A stretch of 57,459 nt of DNA from Myxococcales bacterium (lineage in GTDB: Bacteria; Myxococcota; Myxococcia; Myxococcales; JAKAPL01): positions 1-57,459 of the forward strand of contig DATJNL010000021.1 of the NCBI GenBank assembly GCA_035508175.1. Direction: 5' to 3'. Of the stretch, positions 5,715 to 24,200 are shown in pieces (positions within the stretch are counted from its first letter, which is position 1; each line of letters opens with the position of its first letter). The notes beneath the pieces were generated by a model. The model worked only from the letters and a program-made list of their open reading frames with translations. It had not been told where the DNA came from and did not search any database. The translations under genes were made by a program, and so were the position numbers.

Positions 5715-6182
5715 ATGGCCGAAGAGAAAGCCCCAGAGACCGCCGAGAAGCCCGCGGCCGCGCCCGAAGCGGCGGCTGCCGCCGGTGCCGCTGCCGGAGA
5801 AGAGGGCGGCAAGAAGAAGAAGAAGGTCAAGAAGAACGTCCTGAACGGTATCGTGCACGTGCAGGCCACGTTCAACAACACCCTGATCACCATCACCGAC
5901 GTGAGCGGCAACGTGATCGCCTGGTCGAGCGCCGGCTCGCGCGGCTTCAAGGGCAGCCGCAAGAGCACGCCGTTCGCCGCCCAGGTGGCCGCGGGCGACG
6001 CCGCCGCCAAGGCGATGGGTCACGGCCTCAAGAACGTGACCATCCGCGTGAGCGGCCCCGGCGCCGGGCGCGAGTCGGCGCTGCGCGCCATCGCCTCCTC
6101 CGGCCTCAAGGTCTCCGAGATCCGCGACGTCACCCCCATTCCCCACAACGGTTGCCGGCCGCCCAAGCGCCGCCGCGTCTAG
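5715..6182 (+). CDS. rpsK: 30S ribosomal protein S11 with an Ala/Glu-rich N-terminal extension
   Basis: The 155-aa ORF has the core [30 protein letters not shown], which is S11. An AAGGAA RBS precedes the ATG at 5715. Confidence 0.95.
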
Positions 6183-6191
6183 GAGAAAGCC

Positions 6192-6818: not shown

Positions 6819-6931
6819 CAGGGCCGAAGCAGTTGGCGCCCGCACACCCGGAGTGGTGCGCGGCCTCCGGGGATGGGCCCGGTGGCTCGCGCGTGGATCC
6901 GGGGGCGGGCTTTCTCGAAAGGCAGTGACCC

Positions 6932-7942
<1,011 letters not shown>

Positions 7943-7977: not shown

Positions 7978-8544
7978 ATGCGGCACCAGAACATGGGGCG
8001 AAGGCTCGGTCGGACCACCGAGCACCGGCACGCGCTGCTCGGCAACCTCGTCGCGGCGCTGATTCACCACGAGCGGATCCAGACCACGCTGCCCAAGGCC
8101 AAGGAGGCCCGGCGGCTGGCGGAGAAGATGATCACGCTGGCGAAGCGGGCCGGGCTGCACCACCGCCGCCTGGCGGGCCGGACGCTCCGCGACGGCGACG
8201 CTCTCAGCAAGCTCTTCGCCACGCTGGGCCCGCGCTTCGCAAGCCGCGCGGGCGGTTACACGCGCATCGTGCGGCTGGGGCACCGGCTGGGCGACGCGGC
8301 GCCGATGGCGATCCTCGAGCTGGTGGAGCGCTCCCCGAAGGAGACCCCGGAGACCGGCGCCAAGACGGCGAAGCCCGCGAAGGGCGAGGCCGCCAAGGCG
8401 AAGTCCACCGGCAAGGCCGAAGCCAAGCCCGAGCCCAAGAAGAAGGCCGCCGCGAAGGCGTCGGCCAAGGAAGACAAGGCCGAGGGCGAGAAGAAGGCCG
8501 AGAAGAAGCCCGCGGCCAAGAAGGCGCCGGCGAAGAAGAAGTAA
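7978..8544 (+). CDS. rplQ: 50S ribosomal protein L17 with a ~70-aa Lys/Ala/Glu-rich C-terminal tail
   Basis: The ATG at 7978 lies inside track ORF 6853..8544. The product [37 protein letters not shown] is L17. The tail reads [34 protein letters not shown]...KKAPAKKK. Confidence 0.93.
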
Positions 8545-8600
8545 CCGGTCGGTCCGGTCTCGAACGGTCTGCGGCCCGCAGCGGCGAGCGTCGGGGTCTT

Positions 8601-9608
8601 CTGGCGCGCGTCGAAAGCTTCATGGAAGACGCGCTGGGGCCCGTCGCGCGCGTGCCATGGGCTCTGGCGCAGGCCGTGGGTCTTGGAGCGCGCGTTCGCG
8701 AGCCTCCAGCGCACGGCGAAGGCCTTCCATCGCGGGGGAGAGAGCTCGTTGGACGGGCGATGGAGCTCGTTGAACGAGCCGTCATCGGTCCAGCGCACGG
8801 CGAAGGAGGCCTGGCGCGCGTCGAAGGACGTCTGGCGCAGGTCGGGAAGGCTCTTGAACGCGCGCGAAGGCCCCCAGCGCGTGCGTGAGCCCTTCAAGCA
8901 GGTGCGGGAAATCCTCCAGCGCGTGAGCGAAGCCTTCCAGCGCGTGCGCAAGGGCCTCCAACACATGCGCAATGGCTTCTCCAGCCTGCGCAATGAACGT
9001 TTGCGCGCGTTCGACGAACCCTGGCGCGGGCGCGGGAACCTCCAGCCTCTCGCGTGGAGGGTCTGGCGCGTGCTCGCCGGGTTCTAGAACGCGCTCGCGG
9101 CTTCGTTGGAGACGCCCGCGGCCTTCTGGAACCCGCGCAAGGTCTTCCAGCGCCTGCTCGACGACCTCTGGAACGTGGGCTGGAGGCCCTGGCGCACGCG
9201 CGCGAAGACATTGAACGCGCGCAAACGGTTCGAGCGCGCGTCGTGGAGGCCGTTGCGCACGTCGTGGAGGCGTTTGCACGCGCGCTCGAAGCCTTCGCAC
9301 ACGTCGGGGAAGACCTTGCACGCGTCGTGGAGGCCTTCGCACGTGCGCTGGAAGCCTTCGCGCACGTCGTGGAAGACATTGCGCGTGTCGTGGAGGCGTT
9401 TGCACGCGTGCTGGAAGCCTTCATGCACGTCGTGGAAGACCTCGCACGCCTCGTGGAAGCGTTTGCGCGCGTGCTGGAAGCCTTCATGCACGTCGTGGAA
9501 GACATTGCACGCGTCGTGGAAGCCTTCGCGCGCCTTCTGGGCGCGATCGTACGAGCGCGAGAGCCGCTGGCACGCAGCCTGGAAGGCTTCGGGCGTCGCG
9601 GAGACCCG
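8601..9608. repeat. Degenerate tandem array of about 48 units of exactly 21 nt, with a 63-nt super-period in the 3' third
   Basis: Hand segmentation from 8601 in steps of 21 nt stays in register to 9608. Units 9399/9462 differ by 1 nt and units 9420/9483 are identical. The units contain 10-bp palindromes (GCACGCGTGC, CGCACGTGCG, GAAGGCCTTC). Confidence 0.85.
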
Positions 9609-9779
9609 CGCGGGGGCTCGCAACGCAGCACCCAGGACCCTCGCGACCTCGATCGACCCGGCCGCGGGGGGAGCCCACGCGCGGTTGACCTCGATTGGCC
9701 CGCCCACGAGTGGACTCAAGGGGTTGGCGACCTCGACGCACCCGCTGGTGGCAGGACTCAGCGCGCTGGTGACCTCCAC
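9084..9779 (-). CDS. Candidate heptad-repeat protein rich in His/Cys/Phe (FHDVHEG-FQHACKR-LHDTRNV units); the coding status is unresolved
   Basis: It has a GTG start. Wobble GC is about 86% over 42 hand-counted codons, tied with the + frame that shares the same wobble positions, and its codons are typical of high-GC genomes. There is no convincing RBS, and the ORF lies entirely inside the repeat tract. Confidence 0.3.
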   Translation of the reverse strand: MEVTSALSPATSGCVEVANPLSPLVGGPIEVNRAWAPPAAGSIEVARVLGAALRAPARVSATPEAFQAACQRLSRSYDRAQKAREGFHDACNVFHDVHEGFQHARKRFHEACEVFHDVHEGFQHACKRLHDTRNVFHDVREGFQRTCEGLHDACKVFPDVCEGFERACKRLHDVRNGLHDARSNRLRAFNVFARVRQGLQPTFQRSSSRRWKTLRGFQKAAGVSNEAASAF

Positions 9780-9938
9780 GGACCGGGCCGTGACAGCCCC
9801 TAACTCGTTGGAAGCACTTGCGAACCCGGCCGCGAAGGGGCACGAACCGCTGGCGACCTGGACGGACGCGGTCGTTCCCTGACTCGACGGGCCCGTGAGC
9901 TGCCCTGACCCGGCGGTGGCCCGACCAAAGCCGACCGC
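9645..9938. repeat. Seven units of exactly 42 nt, contiguous with the 21-nt array
   Basis: The motif GACCTCGA/GACCTCCA/GACCTGGA recurs at 9645, 9687, 9729, 9771 and 9855, with degenerate copies at 9813 and 9897. All are spaced 42 nt or a multiple of it. Confidence 0.75.
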
Positions 9939-9962
9939 GGGGCTCCCGCGGGTGGCCGTGGC

Positions 9963-11403: not shown

Positions 11404-12171
11404 ATGAGATATATTTCTGCGGTGCTCGACTACCTCGTCACCTCGAAGGCTCGCCGCCGGTTGCTGACGCTACTGTGGAGACAGGGGGCGTCCGGCTCGG
11501 CTTCTGCGCTGGCCCAGCAAGCGCACGTCGCCTTTGCGAGCGTGCACCGCGAACTGCAGGCGATGAAGCTGCTCGGCCTCGTCGTCTCGAGGCGGGAGAA
11601 CGCTGCCGAGGTCTTCCGAGCCAACGAGGCCTCGCCGTTTGCCCAGGTGCTGCACGAACTGTCGCGGCCGGTTCCATCGATGCTGGCTGCCGACCCTGCA
11701 GCGGTGCGTACGCGTGGCGAGCTGAGGACGCTTGGCGCTCCTCTCCTCGATCCCCCGGTCGATGTCTCGGAGGTCGAGGCCGCGCTCGTGCGAGGCGCCG
11801 CGTTGTCGCACCGGGATCCGACGGTCGCTCGCGTCCTGCCGCTGTGCTTCCATCGATCGGTGCGAGACCGGCACCTCGACGTCGACCGGCTCCTGCGCCT
11901 CGCCCGTGATTCGAGCGAAAAGCAGGCGGTCGGGTTCTTCCTGGATCTGACGGGATCGCTGTCGGGTGACCGGCGCCTGAAACGTTGGGCGTCACGCTTT
12001 CGGGATCGTCGATGCGCCGAGGGTGCGCGCAGCTTCTTCGTCGAATCCTCGCCGGCAGCGCGCGAAGCTGCGAGCCAGAACACACCGGCCGTGGCCAGGC
12101 GGTGGGGTTTGCGCATGAACATGGGCCTCGGCGCGTTCAAGTCGATGTACGAGAAGCACGTCGATGCGTAG
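11404..12171 (+). CDS. Winged-helix (ArsR/MarR-like) DNA-binding protein with an uncharacterised C-terminal domain; putative antitoxin or regulator
   Basis: The 255-aa ORF has an N-terminal wHTH-like stretch SKARRRLLTLLWRQGASGSASALAQQAHVAFASVHRELQAMKLLGLVVSRRE. Its 3' end overlaps the next gene by 8 nt (ATGCGTAG). Confidence 0.65.
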   Translation: MRYISAVLDYLVTSKARRRLLTLLWRQGASGSASALAQQAHVAFASVHRELQAMKLLGLVVSRRENAAEVFRANEASPFAQVLHELSRPVPSMLAADPAAVRTRGELRTLGAPLLDPPVDVSEVEAALVRGAALSHRDPTVARVLPLCFHRSVRDRHLDVDRLLRLARDSSEKQAVGFFLDLTGSLSGDRRLKRWASRFRDRRCAEGARSFFVESSPAAREAASQNTPAVARRWGLRMNMGLGAFKSMYEKHVDA

Positions 12172-12730
12172 CTACACGCCGGGAGACCTGCGCGTCTTCC
12201 TGAGAGCGGTGGACGCACATCTCGCGCGAACCGCCGAGCTCAAGGTCATGGGCGGAGGCGCCATCGCTCTCGCCTACGGTGTCCTCCTGAGCACCTCGGA
12301 CATCGACACGTTCGAGACGGATCTGGACGCCGTCGCAGACGCCATTCAGAAGGCGCAAGCGAGCACCGGGCTTCCCATCCAGGTGTCTCCGCTCGGCGGG
12401 AGCGTCGGCGACTGGCCCGAGAACAGCGGGGAGCGCTTGATTCGCGTGATGCCGGAGCTGCCGAGGTTGTCGATCTTTGCCCTCGAACAGCACGATTTGG
12501 CACTCAGCAAGAGCGTCCGAGGTTACGAGAACGACCTCGCTGCGATCGAGCAGCTACACGGGCGCCTCGCGCTCGACAGGGACGTCCTCGTGAGGCGCTA
12601 CGTGCACGAGATGGCCCACGCAATTGGTGACCCGGTTCGTCTCGATCGCAACTTCATCCTGATGATCGACCGTCTCTTCGGCGAGACCGCCGCTGAAGAG
12701 GTAGAGGTGCTGCTGGCCTCCCGCCGCTGA
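12164..12730 (+). CDS. Minimal nucleotidyltransferase (MNT/AbiEii/DUF6036-like)
   Basis: The 188-aa ORF carries a pol-beta NTase signature, GGGAIALAYGVLLSTSDIDTF (G[GS]-x9-13-DxD), and is translationally coupled to the wHTH gene. Confidence 0.7.
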   Translation: MRSYTPGDLRVFLRAVDAHLARTAELKVMGGGAIALAYGVLLSTSDIDTFETDLDAVADAIQKAQASTGLPIQVSPLGGSVGDWPENSGERLIRVMPELPRLSIFALEQHDLALSKSVRGYENDLAAIEQLHGRLALDRDVLVRRYVHEMAHAIGDPVRLDRNFILMIDRLFGETAAEEVEVLLASRR

Positions 12731-12824: not shown

Positions 12825-14810
12825 CTAGCCGGGGCAAATTCCCGCGTCGCCGCACGAGAAAGGAATGGCCGGCAGGCAACCGTAGCCGAGCACGCACTCG
12901 CCGAGGAAGCATGCCGGCGTTGGGCAATCGAGGTCGGCGCCGCACGGGCTGCCGGTCTCCGTGCAGGCCCCGGCGTCGGTGCAGGTATCTGCCGGGCAGT
13001 CGGCTGTCGTACGGCAACCGGCGGTCCCCACGAGGCCGCCGTCGGCACACCAGCACGGAGTTCCTACCAGGCTAGGGCCGCCGCAGGCGCAGATCCCGAG
13101 ATCCGCGGGGACGCCCAAGGGCGTGCACACGAAACCGCCTGGGCAAGCGCCAGAAGCGGAGCAGTCCGCCGCGCAGATGAACCCACAGCCTCCATCATCG
13201 CAGCCGTCGAGGTCCCGCTGCGCGGGGAGACAGGTGCCGCCCGCATTCAGGCAGGCCGTTGAAGCCCCAGGGGCACAGGTCAAGCACGCAGGGGCCGTCC
13301 GGGCACAATCGTACCCGCAGCGCCCTGCGTCGCAGGCCTGTCCGGCAGAGCAGGAAGCCCCACACGCTCCGCAGTTGGCGAGGTCGGCCTCCTCATTCGT
13401 GCAGGTCCCCGCGCAGCACGCGCCGCTCTCGCATTCGCCGGCACTGACGCAAGGCATGCCGAGGCCGCGCGTTGGTGCCGGAGCCGCGGCTGCAACCGGT
13501 AGAAGCTCCATGACCCGTCCGTCCTGGAAGCCTGCGTCGGGGGTCCCCGTGTCGTTCCAGAAGAGCGTCCCCGAGGTGGCGACCAGCGCCGGGGGGCTGA
13601 CGGACGGCTGTCCCCCGACCAGCAGCGTGGGCGCCCCTCCATCGATCCGGATCGATTCGATTCTCACGTCGGTCTGGGACAGCACGTTGTCGGTCCAGAA
13701 GATCGTTGTGCGGCCCAGCGCCAGGGTCCCTGGCCATGTCAGAGACGACGCCAGGGTGACGGTCGCGCCCCCGTCTCGGGCCACCGCCATGAGGGTGCCG
13801 TCTCCGGGTTGGGGGATGGCGCCCGGGACGCAGCCGTACTCGCCCAGGTTCAGCCAGTAGAGATTCCCTTGGTCCAATGTCAGAGCCGTGGGCTGGTGCT
13901 GGCCTGCTGCCAGCACGCGAGGCCGGCCGCCGGACAGGGGGCGAGCAAGGATGGCGCCATCCGTACACTTCGGAGGAGAGCCCGAGGCGGCCCAGTAGAG
14001 ATAGCCGTCGTCGATGACGAAGGCGGTTGCCCCACTGGCGAGCAGAACCCGTCCGCCATCCAAAGGATCAGCTCGGGGCAAGCGGACGATGTCCCCGGCC
14101 TGGTAGGGCGGTCCGGAGTACAGCCATTCGGCGTCGACGTAGGATCCTTGTTCCCCATGCGCCTGGACCAGAGAGAACGGGCCACCATCTAGCGATGTCG
14201 ACGCGATCCCATAGTTGGCCCCGAACCACCAGAGCGCCCTTCCGTCCACAAAGGGGGCTTCTGCCCATTGGTTCTCCTGGTTCTCCGCCGAGACCGGCGA
14301 GAGGCCTCCCCCCTCCAGGTCGACTTGCCAGACGATTGGCTCCCCGGGATTCGCGCCGAAATTCGTGCCAAACAAAGCCGGTCCCCAGAGGGCCAAGCCG
14401 CTGGCGGGCTGTTGGGTCACGGTGATCAGGCAACGCCCGCGAATGCAAGCACTGGGGCCAGCGTCCGTCGGAGACGCGGGGCACGCGAAGCCGCAGGCAC
14501 CGCAGTTCGCGGGGTCGGCCAGGGTGTCGACGCATGCACCTCCGCACGCCGTCTCTGCACCGCCGTCGCTCGGCGGGCAGGCGCATTCGCCCGCGGTGCA
14601 AACGCTCCCCGTGAGCGATGCCTGGCAATCGAGGTCGGATCCACATCCGCCATCCCCGCCGTCCCGCCCTCCGTCGGCACCCGGCGTTCGCCCTGCATCC
14701 TGCCCGCCATCCGTCTGCCCACCATCGGTCTGGCCGCCGTCCCCGGGCGGCGAAGGCGGCTTGCAGGCGGAAGCCACAACGGCCAGCAACATGAAGGCTG
14801 CGGGCTTCAC
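12825..14810 (-). CDS. Cys-rich lipoprotein with a beta-propeller (YWTD/LYW-type blades) and a C-terminal Cys-knot-like region
   Basis: The 661-aa ORF has a GTG start and the lipobox VVASAC. Blade signatures are GYLYWAA, GNLYWLN, TTIFWTD and GTLFWND. The motif NCGACG-x2-C occurs twice. The start lies 3 nt after the upstream stop. Confidence 0.8.
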   Translation of the reverse strand: MKPAAFMLLAVVASACKPPSPPGDGGQTDGGQTDGGQDAGRTPGADGGRDGGDGGCGSDLDCQASLTGSVCTAGECACPPSDGGAETACGGACVDTLADPANCGACGFACPASPTDAGPSACIRGRCLITVTQQPASGLALWGPALFGTNFGANPGEPIVWQVDLEGGGLSPVSAENQENQWAEAPFVDGRALWWFGANYGIASTSLDGGPFSLVQAHGEQGSYVDAEWLYSGPPYQAGDIVRLPRADPLDGGRVLLASGATAFVIDDGYLYWAASGSPPKCTDGAILARPLSGGRPRVLAAGQHQPTALTLDQGNLYWLNLGEYGCVPGAIPQPGDGTLMAVARDGGATVTLASSLTWPGTLALGRTTIFWTDNVLSQTDVRIESIRIDGGAPTLLVGGQPSVSPPALVATSGTLFWNDTGTPDAGFQDGRVMELLPVAAAAPAPTRGLGMPCVSAGECESGACCAGTCTNEEADLANCGACGASCSAGQACDAGRCGYDCARTAPACLTCAPGASTACLNAGGTCLPAQRDLDGCDDGGCGFICAADCSASGACPGGFVCTPLGVPADLGICACGGPSLVGTPCWCADGGLVGTAGCRTTADCPADTCTDAGACTETGSPCGADLDCPTPACFLGECVLGYGCLPAIPFSCGDAGICPG

Positions 14811-14813: not shown

Positions 14814-15362
14814 TCAGGGCAGGGCGAGGGTGCAATAGACGGTCGGAGGACCTGCGTCTCCGTACGGCAGCGTCTCGGCACAGCGGTAGCAAACGAGATC
14901 GCCGAGTGACCCCGCGTCGAAGCCGACGAGGCCGGTCGCCGGCGGAGCTTGCGAGGTGAAATAGGGCGCGCAGTCGCAGATGTCCCCCAGCGTGCACCCG
15001 TCCGGAACGGCGCGGCACGCACCCGGGTAGACGCCCGAATGTTCCTCGCTGGTCGCGAAGTACTCGCAGAGCTCGGCGGAGGGGCAAGCGAGGCACGGCG
15101 CCACGGTTTCCCCGCCGGCGTCGTCGACGTAGAGGCACTGGACCGGGCTACTGCAAGGCAGCAGGCCGGCGTCTCCACCGCTCGGGACGAACCAGCCAGT
15201 GCCAGCGTCCGGGAGCAGTACTCCGAAGCCGCCGGCATCCACGGAGCCGGGACCTACGGCCGCGGGGAGGTTCTCCGGCGCAAGCGAGTTGGGCGAGCAC
15301 GTGGTCAACAGGGGCAGAAAGCACGTCAGGGTGCCTAGCTTCCTACGAGCCACAAGCGGCAT
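14814..15362 (-). CDS. Cys-rich lipoprotein, function unknown
   Basis: The 182-aa ORF has the lipobox PLLTTC, 14 further Cys residues and good high-GC codon usage. Confidence 0.75.
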   Translation of the reverse strand: MPLVARRKLGTLTCFLPLLTTCSPNSLAPENLPAAVGPGSVDAGGFGVLLPDAGTGWFVPSGGDAGLLPCSSPVQCLYVDDAGGETVAPCLACPSAELCEYFATSEEHSGVYPGACRAVPDGCTLGDICDCAPYFTSQAPPATGLVGFDAGSLGDLVCYRCAETLPYGDAGPPTVYCTLALP

Positions 15363-15981
15363 TAGAACAAACGCCAGACGGGCAGGCTACCCCGCACCCG
15401 CCGCAGTTGGTGCGAGTTCCTATCGAAGAAGCGGGGTCACCCCCTTCGAAGGCGAACCAATTCCTCTCGACGAGGCAGTAGTTCTCTTCGAAGAGGAACG
15501 AGCTCCTCTCGCAGAAGCGGCCGTTCCTTTCGAAGAGGAACGAGCTCTTCTCGCAGAGGCGGTCGTTCCTTTCGAAGAGGAACGACCTCTTCTCGCAGAG
15601 GCGGTCGTTCCTTTCGAAAAGGAACGAGCTCTTCTCGCAGAAGGGGTTGTTCCCTTCGAAGATGAACCAGCTCCTCTCGCAAGGGAGGTGGTTCCTTTCG
15701 AAAGGGAACGATCTCTTCTCGCAGAAGCGGTCACTCCTTTCGAAGGGGAGCGATCTCCTTTCGCAGAAGCGGTCACTCCTTTCGAAAAGGAACGAGAGCC
15801 TCGCGCAGAAGCGTTCGTTTCTTTCGCGAGGGACCGACCTGTTCTCCCTCCGAACCGCCTTGCCGACCTTCCTGCACGGGTGCGGTGACCCACCGCAGCC
15901 TCGCATCATCGACCTTCGCTCGCGGGCTGGCGAGCGATCGTCGCCGACGAGCGGAGGACTTCGACGCCTTTGGCCTGACAC
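15343..15981 (-). CDS. Candidate 14-aa-repeat protein (FLFERNDRLCEKRS, about 10 copies) ending in an NCGGCGVACPSGVC motif; coding status uncertain, possibly a gene remnant
   Basis: The repeat part has high GC3 (13 of 14 codons per unit). The C-terminal motif matches the NCGxCGxxC motif of the downstream 661-aa protein. Its 3' end overlaps the next gene by 20 nt. It has no signal peptide, and the + frame that shares its wobble positions is also open. Confidence 0.3.
   Translation of the reverse strand: MSGQRRRSPPLVGDDRSPARERRSMMRGCGGSPHPCRKVGKAVRRENRSVPRERNERFCARLSFLFERSDRFCERRSLPFERSDRFCEKRSFPFERNHLPCERSWFIFEGNNPFCEKSSFLFERNDRLCEKRSFLFERNDRLCEKSSFLFERNGRFCERSSFLFEENYCLVERNWFAFEGGDPASSIGTRTNCGGCGVACPSGVCSNAACGS
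15417..15857. repeat. Array of about 21 units of 21 nt (about 10 units of 42 nt) alternating two palindromic unit types
   Basis: Type X is CGTTCCTTTCGAAGAGGAACG, with 7-bp arms CGTTCCT/AGGAACG around TTCGAAG. Type Y is AGCTCTTCTCGCAGAGGCGGT, with CTTCT-CGC-AGAAG. Boundaries at 15522, 15564, 15606, 15648, 15690, 15732 and 15774 are exactly 42 nt apart. Confidence 0.85.
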
Positions 15982-16046
15982 CGCGCCGAGCCCGCGAGAC
16001 GATCCTCTCGCCGCGCTCCGCGAACCGTGCTAAGCGCTGCGGCCCC

Positions 16047-16460
16047 ATGAGATCCTCGAGAGGGAAGATTGCGGGAGCCGCGCTGTGCCTCCTCTTGGCC
16101 TGCGCCTCCGACCCTTGCAGCGACGGCGCGTCCGCCGCGCAGAACGTCGCCAACTACATCGCGGGCTGCGCCGCCAGCGATCAGGGCTTCTTCGGCGGCT
16201 ACTCGCCCTGCTTCGATCAGAACGCGTGCGAGACGAACTTGAAGTCGTGCTCGCAGGCCGATCGCGCGGTGCTCGAGGCCACGGCGAAGTGCCAGAACGA
16301 GTACGCCGCGAGCAACGCGTGCACGTTCGCGGAGCTGCAAACCTACGACTCCTGCGCGGCCTCGGCGACCACGGCGGCCGACGGGGGGAGCGCTCTCTCG
16401 CCTGCCTGCGCCGAGGCCTTCTCGCAGAACCCTGGCAGCTGCGGGGCCGACGCCGGGTGA
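16047..16460 (+). CDS. Small Cys-rich lipoprotein
   Basis: The internal ATG at 16047 of track ORF 15885..16460 gives MRSSRGKIAGAALCLLLACASDPC, with lipobox LLLAC, and about 11 Cys in the mature part. Confidence 0.7.
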   Translation: MRSSRGKIAGAALCLLLACASDPCSDGASAAQNVANYIAGCAASDQGFFGGYSPCFDQNACETNLKSCSQADRAVLEATAKCQNEYAASNACTFAELQTYDSCAASATTAADGGSALSPACAEAFSQNPGSCGADAG

Positions 16461-16467
16461 GCGATCT

Positions 16468-16481
16468 TGACAAAAATGTCA
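16468..16481 (+). promoter_or_regulatory. AT-rich palindrome TGACA-AAAA-TGTCA (includes a TTGACA hexamer) upstream of the envelope operon
   Basis: The sequence cTTGACAAAAATGTCAgaca is a perfect 5-bp inverted repeat lying 120 nt upstream of the beta-barrel gene start. Confidence 0.3.
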
Positions 16482-16601
16482 GACAACCAGAGCGGGTACC
16501 CACTTGCCTTTGTGGGAGCCGGGTGCTACATGCGCGTGCTCTTGGATGACGAGCGCATGAAGTTTCGGACACGAACTGGTGGCGGCGTGGAGGTATTCCC
16601 C

Positions 16602-17678
16602 GTGAGAACGGCGGCCGTGGCCCTCTCGATCCTCTGCTTCGCCGGAACCGCCTTCGCCACCGCCGAGAAGGGCGACACCACCAAGGGTGAGCACGGCGAC
16701 ACGTCGGCGCCCTCGGACAAGTCCAGCGGTCCGTCGTCGAGCTCCGAGCAGGCCGGCGAGAGCGTGGACCGGAGCTTTGGCACCGGCGGTCCGCTCGCGC
16801 TCAAGCGCTTCAAGTTCGAGCTCGGCTGGGAAAACCATGCGTTCCTCGCGAGCAACAACTTCGAGGGCGACGGCTCGGTGGGCACCGGTGGCGCCGAGGT
16901 CGAGTTCAACTACTTCTACGCCGGCGCCACCTACTACATCACGCCGAGCGACAAGCTCGCCGTCGTCCTGGGCATGTACCTGTTCCACCTCTACAACCCC
17001 GGCGGTCCGGACGGCTTCAGCCCGGACGACGGGTTGCTGCGCTACACGCACCACTTCGCGCTGCCCTGGAAGCTCAACCTCGACGCCTCGGCGTCGGTGA
17101 GCGCACCGTTCTCGAACCTGAGCTACAAGATGGGCCTCATCACCGAGCCGCAGCTTCGCGTCTCGCTGAGCCGCACCTTCGCGAAATACGTCTACGTCGA
17201 CCTGCGCGTCTTCGGAGACTACTACTGGCAGCAGTACAGCAGCATGATCGGCGGCTCCACGCCGAACCCGTACGCGCGTGCCGGCGCTCGCCTCAACGTC
17301 GAGGGCCAGCTGCCCTACCACCCGGCCCTCGCGCTCGGCGTCGACGTCGAGACGGGCTACACCGCCTTCTACAACCCCACCGGCCAGCCGCTGGGGCAGC
17401 CCGGCGAGCCCAACGCCACCACGCCGGGCCCGTACTACGGCATCGAGACGAACCCCATCTACTCGGGGCAGCCCCTGCAGCAAGACTACGGCTACGACGT
17501 GTACTTGAAGTACGACTTCCCGAAGCTGGCCGGCGTCAAGGCCGAGGCGCTGGTGGCCTACGCCCAAGGCGATCCCACCGCCGGCTACACCACCGACCTC
17601 ATCGATGGCGCCTCGAACCTGTACCTGTATTACCCCGAGGCGTCGCAGGTCTACTTCTCGCTGGACCTCACCTACTGA
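16602..17678 (+). CDS. Outer-membrane beta-barrel protein (porin-like), family unknown
   Basis: The GTG at 16602 lies 8 nt after GGAGG. The signal peptide reads VRTAAVALSILCFAGTAFA/TA. The sequence has alternating-hydrophobic strands rich in Y/G and a C-terminal ...YFSLDLTY aromatic end. The alternative ATG at 16557 is less likely. Confidence 0.75.
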   Translation: MRTAAVALSILCFAGTAFATAEKGDTTKGEHGDTSAPSDKSSGPSSSSEQAGESVDRSFGTGGPLALKRFKFELGWENHAFLASNNFEGDGSVGTGGAEVEFNYFYAGATYYITPSDKLAVVLGMYLFHLYNPGGPDGFSPDDGLLRYTHHFALPWKLNLDASASVSAPFSNLSYKMGLITEPQLRVSLSRTFAKYVYVDLRVFGDYYWQQYSSMIGGSTPNPYARAGARLNVEGQLPYHPALALGVDVETGYTAFYNPTGQPLGQPGEPNATTPGPYYGIETNPIYSGQPLQQDYGYDVYLKYDFPKLAGVKAEALVAYAQGDPTAGYTTDLIDGASNLYLYYPEASQVYFSLDLTY

Positions 17679-17704
17679 AGCAAGCAACGGAACAAGGAGC
17701 GATC

Positions 17705-20700
17705 ATGCGCCGGTTCACTCTCGCGGTCTCCACCTCGCTGGTCACGCTGGCCTTCGGCTTCGCCGGCTGCAACGACGGCCCGAACCAGACCTACTCGCCG
17801 CCCGCGCCGAACGCGACGTGGAACGACGGCCGCGCGGCGCCCGGAGACGGCGGCCTGCCCACGGTGCCCGGCGGCACTGCCACCAGTGCCACGGCGCCCT
17901 TCGCGGCAGACGGCGGCGGCGCCCTCGGCTCGGGCGGACAGAACTCGAACGAGATCTGCACGCCGGCGGAGATCGCGGTGCAGAACGGGGTGCTGAACAA
18001 CGAACCGATCCTCGCTCCGAACCAGGTGGCCGGCCTCAACATCGCCGGGGCCGACGGCCAGGGCGGCACCACGTGGCAAGGGCTCACCATCGAGCAGGCC
18101 GAGTCTCGGCCGAACCTCGGGACCGCCATCACCAGCGGCCCGGGCATCACCAGCGCCGATCCGTTCATTCCCAACGCGGGCGGCAACTGCCAGGGCACGC
18201 CGGAGTCCGACCTGTTCGGCCAGGCCAACTACCTCAGCGTCTACTGGAACGGCGGCTCGGTCACGGCGGAATACTACGTGCCCACGCACAAGATCGACTA
18301 CCTGGGCATCGGCCCCGGCCTCGGTGGTCAGTACCAGGGCACTTTGACCATGACGAGCCTCGACGGCAGCACGACCTACACGGTCGCCGTGGACGGTGTC
18401 ACCCCGATCTACGTCCTCGACAACACCACCGGGACGAATACGGCCGTGCCGAATCTCGACTGGCTCGGGGCCAGCCAGGGCGTGCCGGCCTCCATGGCGA
18501 TCTTCGACAGCATGTACCGCGCTGCGATGGCCACCTTCTTCCCGGGCTATCCCACCGAGCCCGCGGGCCAGACCTGCAACCAGACCGGCGCCTGCATCAT
18601 CGGCACGTTCCCCTCGGGCAACTACGCCTACTTCGCCATCCAGCCCCTGGGCATCGCTCTGTGGGTGAACCCGTACACGTTCGGGACGATCACCTCGAAC
18701 GCCATCAACCGCATCGACGTGAACTTCGCGCAGATCATGAACTTCTCGTCGGCGAACCCGGTCCTCAAGCTGGACAACGTCGGCCCCACGACCATCCCGT
18801 TCTCGACGCCCAGCGGCCAGACATGCGCGCTGTCGCTGGGCATGAGCTATGGCGACTTCCTCAACGATTGTGTCGCCACTTCGACCGACGCCTCCGCCAA
18901 CACCACCGAGCAGCTCGAGCTCTTCAGCAACCTGTCGCACGACGAGGAGACGATTCAGTTCAATATCGTCGGCGTCGACATGAGCTTCTCCGCGATCGAC
19001 CGGCTCGGCTACGCGACACCCGCGAACCCGCCACAGGTCCTGGTCGACGCGCCGCTCTCGGGTTGCGCCACCGCGGCCAACGAAGGGGCGGCGGGCTGTC
19101 CACAGCCGGCGGACCAGTCGTTCGAGATGAACGTCGACCAGTACACCCTCGGCCTCCTCGCGAACGACTGGTCCTACAGCACCGACGCGAACGGTAATGT
19201 CGTCGCGCAGTACCAGACCCTGGCTGGCGCGGGCGCCCTGTACGACGACTACCGGACCCTCTCCATCGGTGCCATCGAGAGCGAGGTCTGCAGCAACAGC
19301 CCGACCAACCCGAACTGCGCGGTCTGGATCCCGGCTGATCCCGACGGCGGCACGCCGGCGCCGCCGACCCTGGCGCAGCAGATCCAGAGCTGCATCGCGC
19401 CCCGCGATTCCTCGGGGAACCTCGAGACGACCTCCTGGTTCAACGCCAACGTCGGCGCGGCCTACGTGGCCGGGATTCCGGGCGTGCTGCCAGTCGGGTG
19501 CACCGGCATGGAGCAGCTCCTCAGCGCCGACATCACGCCGAAGAGCGACGGCACCCCGAACTACGACGACCCGGTCGACATCGGCCCCATCGTCAGCCAG
19601 ATCGACCCGAACTACACGCTGGGCATGAAGATGGGCCACCAGACCGGCGCGTGGTGCATCGACGCCATGTCCCTCAACCAGATCGGCGCCCAGAGCGTCG
19701 TGACGCTGGGCGACGGGACCACCCAGCCGATGACCGGCAAGGAGGTCGTCGACCTCGCGGAGCAGGGGCCGGCGGGTGTGCAGGCCGACTTCAACGATCC
19801 CGCGGCGACGGTGACGACGCTCACGCTGCCGCAGTTCTGCGTGGAGAACAACATCCTGCCGCAGTCCGAGCTCCAGGTCATCGCCGCGGTCGCGGGCGGC
19901 AACCAGGCGCTCCTCCCCCTCGACATGCAGGGCGGCGCGGGCGGGACGCCCTCGGCGCGCTTCTTCTTCAAGCAGTACGGCTACGCGACCATCCAGACGC
20001 TGGAAGCGTCGACCGGTGTGGGGTCCTTCGGTCCCAACGGCTCGATCTCGATGCCGGTCTCGGAGTGGGGCCCGCCCACGGTCGGATCGCCGATGCCGAT
20101 CCAGCTCAACGACCTCTTCTTCGACTCGCTCGGGGACGGCCAGTTCGAGACCTTCGAGTACGTCGATCGCCGCTTCGTCTGCCCCGACGGCGCGAACGAC
20201 TGCGCCCCAGCGCCGCTGCCGCAGGGCGCCCCGACGCCGCCGGCGTTCACCTGCCCGGCCGGCACCTGCGACATGTCGGTCGCGAGCAACCACTGCCCGG
20301 CGCCTGTGGCGAACGGAATCGTGCCCCAGGTCCCGCTCTGCAATCCCAATGAGACTGCACAGCCGCCCACCGACGTGACCTTCACCGCCGACGTCAAGGA
20401 CGGCATCATGGATGCCTACGACGTCAACAGATACCTGTACCGCGGTGAGACCGCGCTCTACACCTCGATCCAGCCACAGGGCTTCGCCGTCGCGCAGGCC
20501 AGCAACGCCCTCTTCACCAACGTCTGGGGCAGCGCGCTGCTCAACTCGTTCGGCCCGGGGGCCGCAGGAATCGATGGTCTGCCCGATCTGACCGGGGCGA
20601 TCATCCATGCCTCGGACTACGCCGGCGCCATCGCCTATGCCTCGACCGGCGTCGGGACGCCGCTCACCCTCTCCTACACGCAAGCGCCCACTTCGGCTCT

Positions 20701-21268
20701 CACGGTCGATGGCACCTACGCCGGCCCCCAGCAGATCTTGCTGAATTACGAGGTGCCGGACGGCGGCTTCCCCGGCGTCGGTGGCGCGACGCCCTGGACC
20801 GAGATGGTCGACTGGACCCCGAACCAGCCGCTGAACGGGTTCGACGTCGCCGACTACGGCAACAGCATGCTGGACTACTTCGTCCAGACCGCCTCTGCCG
20901 ACTTCACCGGCATCACCGTGACCGGTCTGCTCGACTACAACATCGTCAACGGCGGCATGGAGGAGATGGCCGCCGAGAGCACCGACTTCCTCGGCGACGT
21001 CTTCATGTGCTACGAGCCCGCGGCCAACCCGCCGATCCTCGCGGTGCGCATGTACACCCCCACCCAGGCCGTCTTGAACTGGTTGAACTCCGTGCCCCAG
21101 GCGTACGCCGACTGCGGCATCGTGGTCCGCTGGAGTCCCTACGACACCTTCGTCAACCTGATCGACTCCACCCTGTACGGCGTACGGCTCCAGGTGACGC
21201 AGGGCGGCGGCCTCGGCCGCATCGTCGGCGCCCAGGTGTACGTGCCGAACCTTCCGTTCGAGGAGTGA
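17705..21268 (+). CDS. Large (1187-aa) lipoprotein with no recognisable domain
   Basis: An AAGGAG RBS precedes it and the lipobox is GFAGC. The sequence is N/T/Q/G/Y-rich and Arg/Lys-poor, with paired Cys residues, a composition typical of surface or extracellular proteins. Confidence 0.85.
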   Translation: MRRFTLAVSTSLVTLAFGFAGCNDGPNQTYSPPAPNATWNDGRAAPGDGGLPTVPGGTATSATAPFAADGGGALGSGGQNSNEICTPAEIAVQNGVLNNEPILAPNQVAGLNIAGADGQGGTTWQGLTIEQAESRPNLGTAITSGPGITSADPFIPNAGGNCQGTPESDLFGQANYLSVYWNGGSVTAEYYVPTHKIDYLGIGPGLGGQYQGTLTMTSLDGSTTYTVAVDGVTPIYVLDNTTGTNTAVPNLDWLGASQGVPASMAIFDSMYRAAMATFFPGYPTEPAGQTCNQTGACIIGTFPSGNYAYFAIQPLGIALWVNPYTFGTITSNAINRIDVNFAQIMNFSSANPVLKLDNVGPTTIPFSTPSGQTCALSLGMSYGDFLNDCVATSTDASANTTEQLELFSNLSHDEETIQFNIVGVDMSFSAIDRLGYATPANPPQVLVDAPLSGCATAANEGAAGCPQPADQSFEMNVDQYTLGLLANDWSYSTDANGNVVAQYQTLAGAGALYDDYRTLSIGAIESEVCSNSPTNPNCAVWIPADPDGGTPAPPTLAQQIQSCIAPRDSSGNLETTSWFNANVGAAYVAGIPGVLPVGCTGMEQLLSADITPKSDGTPNYDDPVDIGPIVSQIDPNYTLGMKMGHQTGAWCIDAMSLNQIGAQSVVTLGDGTTQPMTGKEVVDLAEQGPAGVQADFNDPAATVTTLTLPQFCVENNILPQSELQVIAAVAGGNQALLPLDMQGGAGGTPSARFFFKQYGYATIQTLEASTGVGSFGPNGSISMPVSEWGPPTVGSPMPIQLNDLFFDSLGDGQFETFEYVDRRFVCPDGANDCAPAPLPQGAPTPPAFTCPAGTCDMSVASNHCPAPVANGIVPQVPLCNPNETAQPPTDVTFTADVKDGIMDAYDVNRYLYRGETALYTSIQPQGFAVAQASNALFTNVWGSALLNSFGPGAAGIDGLPDLTGAIIHASDYAGAIAYASTGVGTPLTLSYTQAPTSALTVDGTYAGPQQILLNYEVPDGGFPGVGGATPWTEMVDWTPNQPLNGFDVADYGNSMLDYFVQTASADFTGITVTGLLDYNIVNGGMEEMAAESTDFLGDVFMCYEPAANPPILAVRMYTPTQAVLNWLNSVPQAYADCGIVVRWSPYDTFVNLIDSTLYGVRLQVTQGGGLGRIVGAQVYVPNLPFEE

Positions 21269-21271
21269 GCC

Positions 21272-24200
21272 ATGAACTGCACACATTTCGAGACCCGCGA
21301 CATGAACCGCATTTCGAGAGAGGACGGCACCATGGCTCACCGCATCCTGCGCCTCGTGGCCTTCGCGGCCGCGTTCCTGGCCACAGGGAGCTGCGTACAG
21401 ACGCGCCCGTCGCGTAACGCGGTCCTGAACGAGAACCAGTACGTCCGAAAGGACTTCCTGGTCGGCGCCGCGAACTCCACCACGCCCGACCCGGGCTGGT
21501 GGCTCAAGGGCACCATCGTCCAGACGTCCACGCCGAACCCGCTCGGCAGCTCCACCTTCGGGCTGTCGCCGGGCATCGACTCGGGCGCCATCCCGATCCG
21601 CTTCGTGATCACCGAGGACAAGCTGCAGATGGTGTCCACGCGCGAGGAATCGGCGACCGACCCGCAGTCGCCCGAGGTCACCCCGGCCGTGGTCAATGCC
21701 TGGCCCATCCAGAACGTCGACCTCATGTACTACGTCAACTTGGACGGCGAGCTGACGAACCAGTACGTCGTCAACCAGGAGGCCCCCTGGCAGCAGCGCG
21801 AGTGGGTCCAGGTCAACTTCGACAAGAACGACATGGCCGACCTGGCTCCGCTGGGCGAGGCCACCTGGAACCTGCTGAGCAACTGCGTCGACCAGGCCAA
21901 CGTCTCCACGACCCTCGTGCCGAACTCGTTCATCGTGGACGAGGCGAACAACTACATGCAGTGGACGGTGAGCGTCACCCTGCCGCTGATCTGGGATGAC
22001 CCGAACTGCACCTTCGCCTACGGCGACCTCGGCCAGGAGGCCGCCGCGCTCGGCAAGGAGAGCGTCACCTTCAACCTCATGTACTCGCTCGAGCGCATGA
22101 AGCCGCTGAACCAGGTCACGTACAAGCCGCTGACCATCGCCGAGAAGGACCCCATCCAGCACAAGTACGGCTTCCTGCAGAACATCACCCAGAACCTGGA
22201 CCCGAACACGGGCATGCTCGCTGGCCAGGAGCAGGTGATCCGCTTCGATCCCACGAAGCCCATCGTGTGGTACTTCTCGCAGGGCTTCGACGAGGCCTAC
22301 AAGCACTTCTTCACCGACCCGAACACCGGCATCGTGGATCGCACCAACGCGGTTCTCGAGGCCGCCGGGTCCGCCAAGAACTGCGGCACGGCGCAGGCGA
22401 GCGGCAACTGCGTCGAGGTTCACGACTACGACTACAGCTGCACCGGCTCGAACTGCTCCCCCGGCACCGTGCTCGCACAGGGCCAGGGACCGCGGCAGTA
22501 CGGCGACATCCGCTACAACTTCCTCACCTGGATGTCCGACCAGTTCTCGCAGGAGACCTTCGCCGGCGTCACGATCCCGGTGGTCGATTACCGCACCGGC
22601 GAGTCGATGGCGGCCAACATCGCCTTCAACACGTTCGCATTCCAGGACTTCTACCTGCAGCGCGTGAACGACTACCTGCTCAGCATCGGGGCCTACGGCA
22701 CCGATAACGGCCAGGCCTACAACCTGAACACGCCCGGCGAGTGGCCCACGGAGCCCACCTTTGCGGAGCCTCTCGGCGTGACCGACCCGACGACGGACCC
22801 GAACCTCGTCAACTGCACGGTCGCGGCGGCGCAGAACTCGTGCCCCATCACCGTGACGTACACCGATGCCACGACCAACCAGCCGACCAGCGAGACCCTG
22901 AACTGCTACCAGGGATCGACGCTGCCGATCGAATCTGTCGTCGACGCGGCGGTCCACAACGGCACTTCGACCGTGTTCGGCAAGATGCAGGACTACCTGG
23001 GGGAACCCAGCTCGATCTACGGCAACCTCGGGCCGGCGAATTTCATTGCCCCCACGAGTCAGACCAACGATCCGGACTTCTTCAACGCCTATTACACCTT
23101 GCTGCCCTACATCGTTTACACGGACCCGACGATGAACCCGTACGTGGTTCCGGAAGGCGGCAACGGAACCTTCGGGCCGCCCACCACCACGGACGCCTGG
23201 ACCGATCTGCAGAACGAGGTGGCGTTCCAGAACTGGGCCGCCCAGCTCAACGCCGGACAGGACCAGGGGCTCACCGGCGCCAACATGCCCAACGGCTGGC
23301 CTTACAACTACACGGGCGCTCAGGGTGGCGTGGTCGCCGCAGCGGCGGGCGCCAGCACGTTCCGCAACCTCGACCAGATGCACCACGACTACCAGTACCA
23401 CCTGATGCAGCGGAACATGGCGCACGGCATGCACCTCGACGGGCTCGACAGCCTGTCATTCGAGAGCCAGGCCGACCAGGTCGCCCGGAGCTGCGGCGTC
23501 GACACCGCGGGCGCGTGGCAGACCAAGGAGCAGTGGGTCAGCGATCTGACCTCCGCCTACTGGAACCAGGTCTTCATCCACGAGTTCGGCCACAGCCTCG
23601 GCCTGCAGCACAACTTCATGGGCTCGCTGGACGCGCCGCACTACGAGGCGTTCCCGGTGGGCGTCGACTCGAGCGGCAACCCCGCGACCCAGGCCGAGTG
23701 CGATCAGAACCCGATCCAGCAGGGCTGCGTGCCGGTCACCCACACCAGCTCGGTGATGGAGTACAACGCTTACACGGATCGCCTCGAGTTCCACACACCG
23801 GACTGGGGCGAGTACGACAAGGGCGCGATCGCCTGGATCTACGCGAACAACTCGGCCGACGGCACGCCCCCGAATGGGACGGCCTGCCAGAGCGCGGGCT
23901 GCAGCATCAGCGGCCAGAACAGCGCCACCTCGCCCTGGAACGACCCGATGGGCTTCGACTCGAGCGGCAATGAGATGAAGTTCCTCTTCTGCGACGAGTA
24001 CCACGAGAAATACACGCCGCTCTGCAAGCCCGACGACATGGGCCGGACGCCGAGCGAGATCACCGCCAACGCACTCGACACCTACGAGTGGCAGTACCAG
24101 TGGCGCAACCTGCGCAACTACCACAAGTACTGGGACGACTCGACCTACGCGAACACGCCCGATGCGCTCTTCTCGAGCCTGCAGAAGTTCGTCTCCATGT

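Follow-up and report, generated by a model that had tools for sequence, protein, structure and literature searches.

The window analysed here, a stretch of 57,459 nucleotides, is a chromosomal, housekeeping region of a Myxococcota-like organism, with rpoA, rplQ, thiC, genes for LPS glycosyltransferases, smpB, and panBC as the assignable neighbours. The assignment to Myxococcota is based on a single homologue bearing the name ‘[Myxococcales bacterium]’ and on general features. A tandem array with a period of 42 nt occupies most of a 684-bp gap separating two divergent lipoprotein-like genes. The features of the gap and its borders are as follows:

14814..15362, minus strand: 182-aa lipoprotein-like gene, the first gene of the leftward operon (called on the ENA metagenome contig)
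15363..15409, minus strand: non-repetitive segment directly 5′ of the start codon of the 182-aa gene (from alignment with the region upstream of its 167-aa orthologue in relative L045)
15391..15888, no strand: whole reach of detectable 42-nt periodicity, with decayed units on both sides (repeat family D1)
15417..15857, no strand: tandem array of X and Y dyad units, degenerate at the edges and most uniform in the centre (Tandem Repeats Finder, spacing, register layout)
15522..15647, no strand: the three 42-nt units most alike, starting at 15522, 15564, and 15606 (unit table; X copies with 0–1 mismatch at 15523, 15565, and 15607)
15858..16046, no strand: non-repetitive rest of the gap, 5′ of the 137-aa gene, 71% GC (composition, repeat search)
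16047..16460, plus strand: 137-aa lipoprotein-like gene, the first gene of the rightward operon (called gene)

The translation of the 182-aa gene begins with a signal-peptide/lipobox-like N-terminus, and the gene is followed by one for a 661-aa Cys-rich secreted protein (12825-14810). L045, a syntenic relative, has a 167-aa gene at the matching position; pairwise alignment shows the segment 15363..15409 to be conserved there, with conservation ending just short of the array, and this segment may hold the 5′ leader of the 182-aa gene and perhaps a core promoter. The distance from the array to the 182-aa start codon is ~50 bp. On the other side, 15858..16046 holds two small unrelated inverted repeats (I4 and I5), and the 137-aa gene is followed by genes for a 382-aa OMP-like protein, a 1187-aa protein, and, last, a 1303-aa Met-zincin protein (Pfam DUF4953/Peptidase_M10). 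This rightward operon is conserved among relatives from the 382-aa gene on; a small 138-140-aa gene upstream of it is present, among relatives, in L045/L046 and L052 only. Neither a sigma-70-like nor a sigma-54-like promoter rose above background in the gap, the window, or the relatives (in the gap, the top sigma-54-like score does not exceed the median for random windows), and no terminator bounding the array was found.

The ten-odd 42-bp tandem units that the first-pass annotation described are real. Tandem Repeats Finder reports the array core (15462-15826) with a period of 42, 8.7 copies, 82% matches, 0% indels, and a score of 429; a repeat search returned eight in-register copies at a spacing of exactly 42 nt; and the unit boundaries earlier placed 42 nt apart at 15522, 15564, and so on to 15774 are exact in the 21-nt register. 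An independently assembled metagenome contig (L003) is identical base for base (100%) across 15300-16100, which rules out an assembly artefact in the window as the source of the array. The array spans ~15417-15857 and comprises ~10.5 units, that is, 21 alternating 21-nt dyad units of types X and Y. The copies of repeat family D1, from 15391-15594 through 15685-15888, show 65–83% identity to the reference copy. At 56% GC, the array is AT-richer than the remainder of its gap (71% GC) and than the window (70% GC). Not a single indel is found across the ~440 bp of the array although substitution divergence is 18%, and neighbouring units carry common variants (e.g. CAC at 15732 and 15774). Within the array, the units at 15522..15647 are the most recent or the most strongly homogenised, and it is these that carry the X palindromes with perfect 7-bp arms.

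The earlier description of the units needs some amendment. X (CGTTCCTTTCGAAGAGGAACG) is a palindrome with perfect 7-bp arms, as described, at 15522 and 15564, but it has one central change at 15606 and is imperfect in the remaining copies; the 19-mer GTTCCTTTCGAAGAGGAAC occurs seven times at ≤3 mismatches (0.01 expected), always within the array. Y is present too, although the CTTCT/AGAAG form ascribed to it is found in only some units and the most frequent form is AGCTCTTCTCGCAGAGGCGGT (arm AGAGG). The alternation of the two holds, but X and Y are variants of one 21-nt unit type, having T4, C5, T9, C10, G11, A13, and G17 in common and a shared 13-bp core, C-Y-T-Y-T-C-G-M-A-G-R-R-G (CYTYTCGMAGRRG). 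They are strictly contiguous, in a single orientation, and without linker motifs. Dyad symmetry is a maintained property of the array; 80% of cells pair about column 11 versus 48–67% in slid controls, and the differences between X and Y are compensatory at pairs 1-21 (C-G vs A-T), 3-19 (T-A vs C-G), and 8-14. The best-conserved columns are the central TTCGAA/TCGCA (nine clustered TTCGAA sites in the array) plus the symmetric C5/G17 and T9/A13. The 42-bp unit corresponds to four helical turns and the 21-bp dyad interval to two, so that all dyads lie on the same side of the helix.

Comparison with related genomes showed no orthologous array in any syntenic relative examined (L045-L054 and L090-L095), and the orthologous gaps do not align; that of L045/L046 (65% amino-acid identity in the neighbouring gene) holds an IS fragment and a small ORF, and no array. 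Further copies of the unit, down to single X- or Y-like sites, were likewise sought and are absent from the rest of the 57-kb window and from ~100 kb of the syntenic relatives. The lineage has several further 21-nt-based arrays. At an unrelated metagenome locus (L074/L089), we found a 21-nt tandem array in which one unit equals X at 21/21 positions and the dominant variant, TCCTTTT-G-AAAAGGA, is a better palindrome still; the two arrays thus make up a small, undescribed repeat family. In L074, the stop codon of a gene precedes the array by 115 nt, and the array is in no obvious promoter position there; the partial ORFs called over L074/L089 have no exact counterpart in the collection consulted. 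Just one other contig matched in a 19-mer scan of 241 million metagenome records. A scan of the genome collection with TTCGAA-N15-TCGCAG-N15-TTCGAA, a pattern blind to X-only arrays such as that of L074 and to T-variants, returned 41 single chance matches and no array. The plasmid, phage, and viral-contig collections held no match to the array, the literature contains the motif as text only in primers and unrelated sequences, and Rfam 15 yielded only miRNA-precursor models at 24–31 bits (gathering scores 68–97). The earlier judgement that the unit belongs to no described family thus stands.

We consider the array very probably to be a non-coding, lineage-specific minisatellite that grew by in-register duplication of a 21-bp dyad unit, followed by divergence of X and Y and then by amplification of the 42-bp XY pair, with the centre youngest and the edges decayed. 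As to its function, we tentatively suggest—with rather less than even confidence—that the array may offer a dimeric DNA-binding protein a platform of many phased sites upstream of the 182-aa/661-aa operon; a hairpin minisatellite without function is almost as probable. In such a platform, the dimeric protein would polymerise along one face of the AT-richer patch and govern expression of either or both of the divergent operons, and copy-number change in 42-bp steps would tune occupancy while keeping the helical phase. The position of the array in the divergent gap, adjoining the conserved leader of the 182-aa gene, speaks for this proposal, as do its lower GC content, the maintained dyad symmetry, and the identical X unit at L074/L089; the 182-aa gene would be the candidate target if the array is regulatory.

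A precedent, by resemblance only, is the Myxococcus xanthus enhancer-binding protein PexR, which binds 3–6 tandem interrupted palindromes in intergenic regions (PMC12754779). The PexR sites R1-R6 are, like the units described here, adjacent intergenic myxobacterial dyads, and they assemble oligomers of a dimeric regulator; but PexR-type arrays consist of 3–6 sites of the form CACCG-n6-CGGTG beside a sigma-54 promoter and the cognate regulator gene (PMC12754779), whereas in the present array ~21 sites, unrelated to these in sequence, adjoin one another, and the surroundings hold neither a sigma-54 promoter above background nor a gene for an enhancer-binding protein. An upstream activating array for an enhancer-binding protein was rejected, dyads being present but neither a sigma-54 signal nor a Sigma54_activat protein being near. 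In relative L048, a Sigma54_activat protein is encoded upstream of the orthologous operon, yet there is no array.

Several observations weigh against the binding platform. A candidate binder with a link to the array was not found: nothing ties to it the wHTH protein (11404-12171) that the first-pass annotation put forward as a binder, which appears to be half of a two-gene module of its own with a DUF6036 nucleotidyltransferase (PADLOC candidate PDC-M05A), a module that the syntenic relative L045 lacks. No regulon is visible, since single X- or Y-like sites are confined to the array within the 57 kb and the ~100 kb from relatives; no recognisable sigma-70 or sigma-54 promoter lies beside the array; and the second array, in L074, follows a stop codon. 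The absence of the array from every syntenic relative examined implies that any role is young and dispensable for the operon family. To our knowledge, ~20 contiguous sites also far exceed the operator and upstream-activating-sequence arrays so far described. Finally, central homogeneity with edge decay is the product of neutral slippage, and template-switch repair of quasi-palindromes could keep the dyad symmetry without selection.

These last points lead to the foremost rival explanation, which we regard as a realistic possibility: that the array is a functionless or ‘selfish’ hairpin minisatellite, possibly REP/BIME-like, in which a small palindrome that landed or arose in a rearrangement-prone gap was expanded by slippage or unequal recombination (both favoured by hairpin-forming units) while template-switch correction kept the dyad. 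The benefit to the cell would then be nil, incidental effects aside. The lack of the array in all syntenic relatives is in keeping with this origin, as are the IS fragment in the same gap of L045, which indicates that the site tolerates insertions, the decayed edges around near-identical central units, which fit slippage, and the variants common to adjacent units (CAC at 15732 and 15774). What slippage explains less readily is that there are zero indels in ~440 bp despite 18% substitution divergence, that X and Y differ in a compensatory manner, and that a unit in another genome's array is X at 21/21 positions.

REPs and BIMEs are extragenic imperfect palindromes of ~20–40 nt, of which two unit types alternate in tandem clusters that may reach or pass a dozen units. 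The array, too, is a cluster of alternating extragenic palindromes of this size (80% of cells pairing, X/Y alternation as of REP types in BIMEs, intergenic position); its X unit recurs at the unrelated L074 locus downstream of a gene, which is a typical REP position; and the lineage's several other 21-nt-based arrays may be counted on the same side. It differs from them in being contiguous, in one orientation, and without linkers. Furthermore, the lack of dispersed copies in 57 kb and ~100 kb of relatives, with one contig in 241 million records, is unlike a high-copy REP family, and no IS200/IS605-type (RAYT-like) transposase was seen among the Pfam-scanned ORFs of the window (1-6.8 and 53.7-57.5 kb excepted). 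We know of no REP/BIME-like family in Myxococcota-like hosts. Other bacterial intergenic minisatellites (VNTRs, such as the mycobacterial MIRUs) are lineage-specific, with units of tens of bp and variable copy number. The array shares with these its intergenic position, a unit length that is a multiple of three, lineage specificity, and probably copy variability (its copy number being that of one genotype only), but each of its units is a palindrome pair with a maintained dyad.

It is unlikely that the array acts as RNA, either as a long 5′ leader of one of the divergent operons or as a separate small RNA, with a row of ~20 hairpins that would alter mRNA stability, influence termination, or, like CsrB, titrate an RNA-binding protein. 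Transcripts of either strand would indeed fold into rows of hairpins, as had been predicted, and the folds of both strands are much more stable than those of shuffles (−214.8 kcal/mol and z = −8.7 for the plus strand; −195.7 kcal/mol and z = −6.6 for the minus strand), but low free energy is automatic for any palindromic tandem repeat. Each X unit contains an AGGAA motif, yet the GGA motifs are placed in stems rather than loops. With only ~50 nt between the array and the 182-aa start codon, a promoter to the right would place the whole array in the leader of that gene; the array is, however, without a bounding terminator. As a sign of strand preference, G.T pairs slightly outnumber A.C (21 to 13), an excess that is not significant and is inflated by inheritance among copies. 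Moreover, the ‘loop’ TTCGAA is most conserved while the stems vary, the opposite of typical structured RNAs, and no Rfam family was matched other than miRNA hairpins below threshold.

The first-pass annotation had also weighed a 14-aa-repeat protein, encoded either by a 212-aa minus-strand ORF (15343-15981; FLFERNDRLCEKRS repeats and a Cys-rich tail) or by the plus-strand VVPFEEERALLAEA frame, and this we consider quite improbable. Its statement that the array is open in all six frames is true only of the consensus unit; within 15417-15857, stops are absent from two frames (VVPFEEERALLAEA on plus, FLFERNDRLCEKRS on minus) and number 1–3 in the other four. Openness of both frames over the full array is a point for coding, as is the high wobble GC, which we confirm (13/14 consensus positions in the minus frame; 0.91 GC in 15489-15686); but the dyad turns the wobble phase back onto itself, which leaves only ~7–8 independent positions behind the GC3 signal. 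The stop of the minus ORF overlaps the start of the next gene by 20 nt in operon-like fashion. In addition, the window's other array (9084-9779, minus strand) looks coding at 0.24 per codon, and the two minus-strand array ORFs match by BLASTP (E = 0.006), yet the two regions have no DNA similarity above shuffles; we rejected paralogy in favour of an effect of composition and repetition.

The remaining evidence disfavours a protein. No gene is called across the array on the public contig. Among 5.8 billion protein clusters, neither the minus frame (for which Pfam was also negative) nor the plus VVPFEEE frame found a match, not even to itself, and the 119 matches of the nearly open FLSKRNE frame (exhaustive HMMER, 1.84 billion representatives) are all, on inspection, generic repeats of the heptad or low-complexity kind, and many belong to spurious ORFs. 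Mismatches between units are evenly spread over the codon phases (13/11/16), the wobble phase showing the fewest rather than the most, and pN/pS between units is 1.17–2.90 over all six frames (2.5 in the minus open frame, 2.9 in the plus), without any synonymous excess. Codon log-likelihood per codon, for which 43 training genes gave 0.40 ± 0.13 with a minimum of 0.16, is −0.14 over the whole minus ORF, −0.46 and −0.58 in its non-repeat flanks, which thus look non-coding, and −0.51 in the VVPFEEE frame. A second organism, with 68% GC, has the same AT-ending codons GTT CCT TTY GAA, which speaks for constraint on DNA, not on protein. More generally, a repeat that is open in six frames and seemingly high in GC3 need not be a gene in a genome of 70% GC.

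Least probable of all is a partition centromere of sopC/parC type or an iteron-type replication or incompatibility element, e.g. the remnant of an integrated plasmid. The architectural likeness that prompted the comparison is fair: sopC of plasmid F (type Ia) consists of 12 head-to-tail repeats of 43 bp, each with a 16-bp inverted repeat (PMC3177203), and the array likewise has head-to-tail units of 42 bp with 7-bp-arm inverted repeats in four-turn phasing and ~10 copies (8.7 well kept, ~10.5 with the decayed edges), within the ~10–12 direct repeats of ~43 bp of that type. Its 21-nt sub-period, free of indels, also resembles the 17–22-bp direct repeats of iterons in helical phase. Membership in either class is contradicted by the rest. 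Instead of one SopB-site inverted repeat per unit, the array has two related dyads 21 bp apart, of unrelated sequence; it lies in a divergent promoter gap rather than downstream of a par operon; and it is chromosomal, with housekeeping genes as the assignable neighbours and syntenic chromosomal genes in relatives as flanks, not on a plasmid or prophage beside sopA and sopB. No ParA, ParB, Rep, or relaxase domain was detected by Pfam (all examined ORFs ≤6 kb from the array covered; those at 1-6.8 and 53.7-57.5 kb excepted), the whole window lacks a DnaA box (TTATCCACA) within one mismatch, the region's lowest GC is 56% and offers no AT-rich unwinding element, and BLAST was negative against 72,556 plasmids and 50,697 phage records. 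In its arms GTTCC/GGAAC, X has the outer five bases of each half-site of the Myxococcus-type parS, which we take to be TGTTCCACGTGGAACA, but its arm spacing is 9 bp rather than 4 bp. The canonical 16-bp palindromic parS (TGTTNCACGTGAAACA) has one 3-mismatch match, at 36537, outside the array and at chance level (9/100 shuffles). A CRISPR array was rejected as well, the 21 nt between X copies (Y) being themselves repeated and related to X, not unique spacers.

Returning to the binding platform, a bolder version of it, which we think improbable, is that the 21-bp dyad is the recognition element of a putative undescribed Myxococcota protein that polymerises on phased arrays into a centromere- or silencer-like filament and so switches the divergent surface-protein operons on or off, with L074 as a second member in another genome. 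Copy-number change in 42-bp steps or methylation of the nine TTCGAA sites might make such a switch heritable.

If slippage alone made the array, it is a curiosity and a strain-typing marker. Were it a binding platform, it would stand out among chromosomal operator arrays of bacteria by its unusual length and perfect phasing, and the identical 21-mer in a second genome would point to a conserved DNA-binding factor. The platform would then control operons for secreted lipoproteins, an OMP, and a metalloprotease in a predatory, social lineage with poorly mapped regulation.

Very probably, the array is a lineage-specific, non-coding minisatellite in which dyad-symmetric units of 21 bp multiplied by duplication in register, and it is a member of a small repeat family not previously described. 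Tandem Repeats Finder delimits a core at 15462–15826 (period 42, 8.7 copies, 82% matches, no indels, score 429), and a repeat search of the window recovers eight copies that keep register at a spacing of exactly 42 nt, with 42-nt periodicity traceable over 15391–15888. The phased 42-bp array, with alternation of two unit types (X and Y) in 21-nt register, described in the first-pass annotation is thereby borne out. The consensus of unit X is CGTTCCTTTCGAAGAGGAACG and that of unit Y is AGCTCTTCTCGCAGAGGCGGT; X and Y, which have T4, C5, T9, C10, G11, A13, and G17 in common, are variants of a single 21-nt unit rather than the two separate types originally proposed. The 7-bp inverted-repeat arms noted earlier are perfect in three X copies only and imperfect in the others. 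The X 19-mer (≤3 mismatches) has seven matches in the window versus 0.01 expected, all of them within the array, where nine of the thirteen TTCGAA sites of the window also fall. The array is 56% GC, compared with 71% for the rest of the same gap and 70% for the window, and positions 15300–16100 are identical in an independently assembled public contig (L003, ENA sample ERZ27256562).

All 22 units were aligned without gaps (19 from the window and three from L074, an unrelated metagenome locus). About column 11, 80% of cells are standard pairs versus 48–67% with the partner slid, and the covariation score is 0.39 versus 0.12–0.28 in slid controls (reached by 0/500 shuffles), although these statistics overstate the case, since a small number of independent events is shared by descent among many copies. 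Compensatory X/Y differences occur at pairs 1–21 (C-G versus A-T), 3–19 (T-A versus C-G), and 8–14; dyad symmetry has clearly been kept through X/Y divergence.

The window is chromosomal (~70% GC), and Pfam identifies in it rpoA, thiC, queF, LPS-type glycosyltransferases, guanylate kinase, smpB, panB, panC, and signalling proteins. Among the homologues of the 382-aa OMP-like protein listed below, one carries the name ‘[Myxococcales bacterium]’.

Features of the window referred to in the text
15363–16046: array-bearing gap, 684 bp, between two divergent operons
Leftward operon: 182-aa lipoprotein-like gene and 661-aa Cys-rich secreted protein
Rightward operon: 137-aa lipoprotein-like gene, 382-aa OMP-like protein, 1187-aa protein, and 1303-aa Met-zincin protein
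11404–12730: module in which the gene of a wHTH protein (PADLOC candidate PDC-M05A, ArsR-like HTH) overlaps a DUF6036 nucleotidyltransferase gene by 8 nt
8419–8520: tail of an rplQ-like (L17) gene, 51-nt tandem repeat, two copies, long Lys/Ala/Glu-rich C-terminal end
8545–9962: second phased array (arrays 8793–8993 and 9234–9533), 21-nt units, 63-nt super-period, downstream of the PGA_cap gene
25444–25589: 53-nt repeat, 2.8 copies, strong hairpin (CCCTCTCCCCTTCAGGGGAGAGGG)

GC skew is negative (about -0.1) and sustained over 16000–25500, along the plus-strand OMP/1187-aa/zincin operon, with a cumulative minimum near 25–26 kb; this is probably a gene-composition effect and not a replication landmark. 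The strand opposite 8419–8520 holds a long shadow ORF.

The 1.4-kb stretch at 8545–9962 has gene-like GC3 (0.85–0.94), unlike the 15417–15857 array; its minus-strand ORF 9084–9779, with His/Cys-rich heptads EGFHDAC/NVFHDVH, scores as coding (0.24 per codon), and the plus-strand frame picked there by the public gene caller (ARVVEAFARALEAF...) scores -0.06. L045, the closest syntenic relative, has a 63-nt-period array in the same position (1–158) that shares the minus-strand peptide ACE[VG]F, where two of the three DNA differences are synonymous, and the stretch is probably a mis-annotated heptad-repeat gene. The 25444–25589 repeat lies between the convergent Met-zincin gene (end 25183) and a minus-strand gene (end 25609), is found in the independent contig L003 as well, and resembles a REP or terminator element.

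Syntenic loci were retrieved via homologues of the 382-aa gene. In L045 and L046, where that gene is 65% identical, gene order matches on either side, but the gap lacks the array and holds a fragment of an IS-type transposase plus a small ORF for a secreted product, and the L045 gap does not align with that of the window. At L045 4024–4260 lies a fragment like an IS3/IS481-type transposase core (…LGVTKTHSRPHVSDGNPFSENQ…), followed by a poly-C/poly-A run and by a secreted ORF of 104 aa. The gap seems to be a site prone to rearrangement. The array is likewise absent from the further relatives L048–L054 and L090–L095. The window and L045 share a conserved stretch of about 47 nt immediately upstream of the 182-aa start codon, and conservation stops just short of the array; together with its absence from relatives, this indicates a young, lineage-specific insertion or expansion. 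In L048, a gene for an FHA + sigma-54-activator + HTH_8 enhancer-binding protein (5618–7249) is the immediate upstream neighbour of the orthologous OMP-zincin operon, across a 750-bp gap, in which no sigma-54 promoter stands above background.

Across 185,579 species-representative genomes, the X-Y-X core pattern yielded nothing beyond 41 single, chance matches; the X 19-mer had 32 single matches in 241 million metagenome records, most of them in contigs of low GC and seemingly fortuitous. The one real match, L074 (JGI Ga0105240_10361923, 68% GC), terminates in a tandem array of 21-nt units (GCGTTCCTTTTGAAAAGGAGG x 5.9), in which one unit equals X at 21/21 positions and the dominant unit, TCCTTTT-G-AAAAGGA, is a more perfect palindrome. 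This array begins 115 nt past a dioxygenase gene's stop codon, a context unrelated to that of the window; L089, from another ENA sample, is a second assembly of this locus and likewise breaks at the array. The 21-nt unit thus defines a small sequence family at two or more unrelated loci, probably spanning two organisms. L048, a Myxococcales MAG, carries at 4240–4584 a nested 21/42/84/126-nt tandem array of GCGCGTCCGCCTCGCGTTCGC-like units, within a called minus-strand ORF of 169 aa, some 3.4 kb upstream of the orthologous OMP-zincin operon; 21-nt-period arrays seem common in the lineage.

The main rival to a regulatory role is a functionless hairpin minisatellite or REP-like expansion, which we rate only a little less likely than that role. 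In its favour, all relatives lack the array, the site is prone to insertions, the array edges have decayed, the L074 array lies 3' of a gene, and neither binder nor regulon is identifiable. The wHTH protein (11404–12171), earlier suggested as binder, belongs to its own two-gene module, which is missing from L045, where PGA_cap directly adjoins a 630-aa orthologue of the 661-aa gene; the pair looks like a self-contained insert, probably toxin-antitoxin or defence-like. REP/BIME clusters are closest in kind to the array (extragenic palindromes, alternating types, same unit at unrelated loci); within the 57-kb window and the relatives, however, no dispersed copies of the array unit were found.

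An RNA role is improbable. Typical structured RNAs conserve their stems and vary the loop, whereas conservation here peaks at the central TTCGAA of X and TCGCA of Y and at the symmetric pairs C5/G17 and T9/A13. Single-unit ssDNA hairpins are modest (X -5.7 kcal/mol, Y -2.7), and although the array as a whole folds at very low energy, any palindromic tandem repeat would do so. G.T exceeds A.C (21 versus 13) without significance, so neither RNA strand is favoured.

A repeat protein, the 14-aa-repeat alternative of the first-pass annotation, is very improbable. The array had been called open in all six frames; two are fully open over 15417–15857 (the plus-strand VVPFEEE frame and a minus-strand 212-aa ORF, 15343–15981) and the remaining four are not. 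The public contig's gene caller called no gene in the 684-bp gap, Pfam found no domain in the array ORFs, and neither open frame has a homologue or self match among 5.8 billion protein clusters; a third, GC3-rich frame matches only generic heptad or low-complexity repeats (exhaustive search, 1.84 billion representatives). Differences between units fall 13/11/16 by codon phase, lowest in the putative wobble phase, and pN/pS versus consensus is 1.17–2.90 across all six frames, leaving no synonymous excess. Under a codon log-likelihood model trained on 43 confident window genes (0.40 +/- 0.13 per codon, minimum 0.16), the VVPFEEE frame scores -0.51 and the 212-aa ORF -0.14. Its repeat part scores 0.02, which by itself is not decisive since the neighbouring conserved 661-aa gene also scores merely 0.02; the non-repeat flanks (-0.46 and -0.58) are decisive. 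The minus-frame GC3 of 13/14 is less informative than it seems, because the wobble phase self-maps under dyad symmetry and leaves about 7–8 independent positions. The AT-ending ‘codons’ GTT CCT TTY GAA are shared by the second organism (68% GC), which points to constraint at the level of DNA and not of protein.

A centromere or iteron is scarcely credible: the array is like sopC (12 x 43 bp, each with a 16-bp SopB-bound inverted repeat, beside sopAB; PMC3177203) in form, as first remarked, but differs in partner genes, replicon type, and sequence, and is rejected as a member on these grounds, and no rep gene, DnaA boxes, or AT-rich element accompany it as an iteron array. Pfam found no ParA, ParB, or Rep domains in the scanned ORFs (roughly 6.9–53.5 kb of the window), and canonical parS is absent. 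A CRISPR array was rejected since the ‘spacers’ are themselves repeats. With no Rfam family match either, the earlier view that the unit lies outside described repeat families holds.

The binding-platform reading is tentative, and we place it somewhat short of an even chance. It draws on the position of the array beside the conserved leader of the 182-aa operon, the strict 21/42-bp phase without indels, the maintained dyad symmetry, the conserved 13-bp core, the low GC content, and the exact recurrence of X in another genome. Myxococcus enhancer-binding proteins do use tandem interrupted palindromes (PexR; PMC12754779); no sigma-54 promoter stands above background in the window or relatives, so that this likeness stays an analogy. 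The array would then be a putative phased multi-site platform for a dimeric DNA-binding protein, which may act on one or both of the divergent operons.
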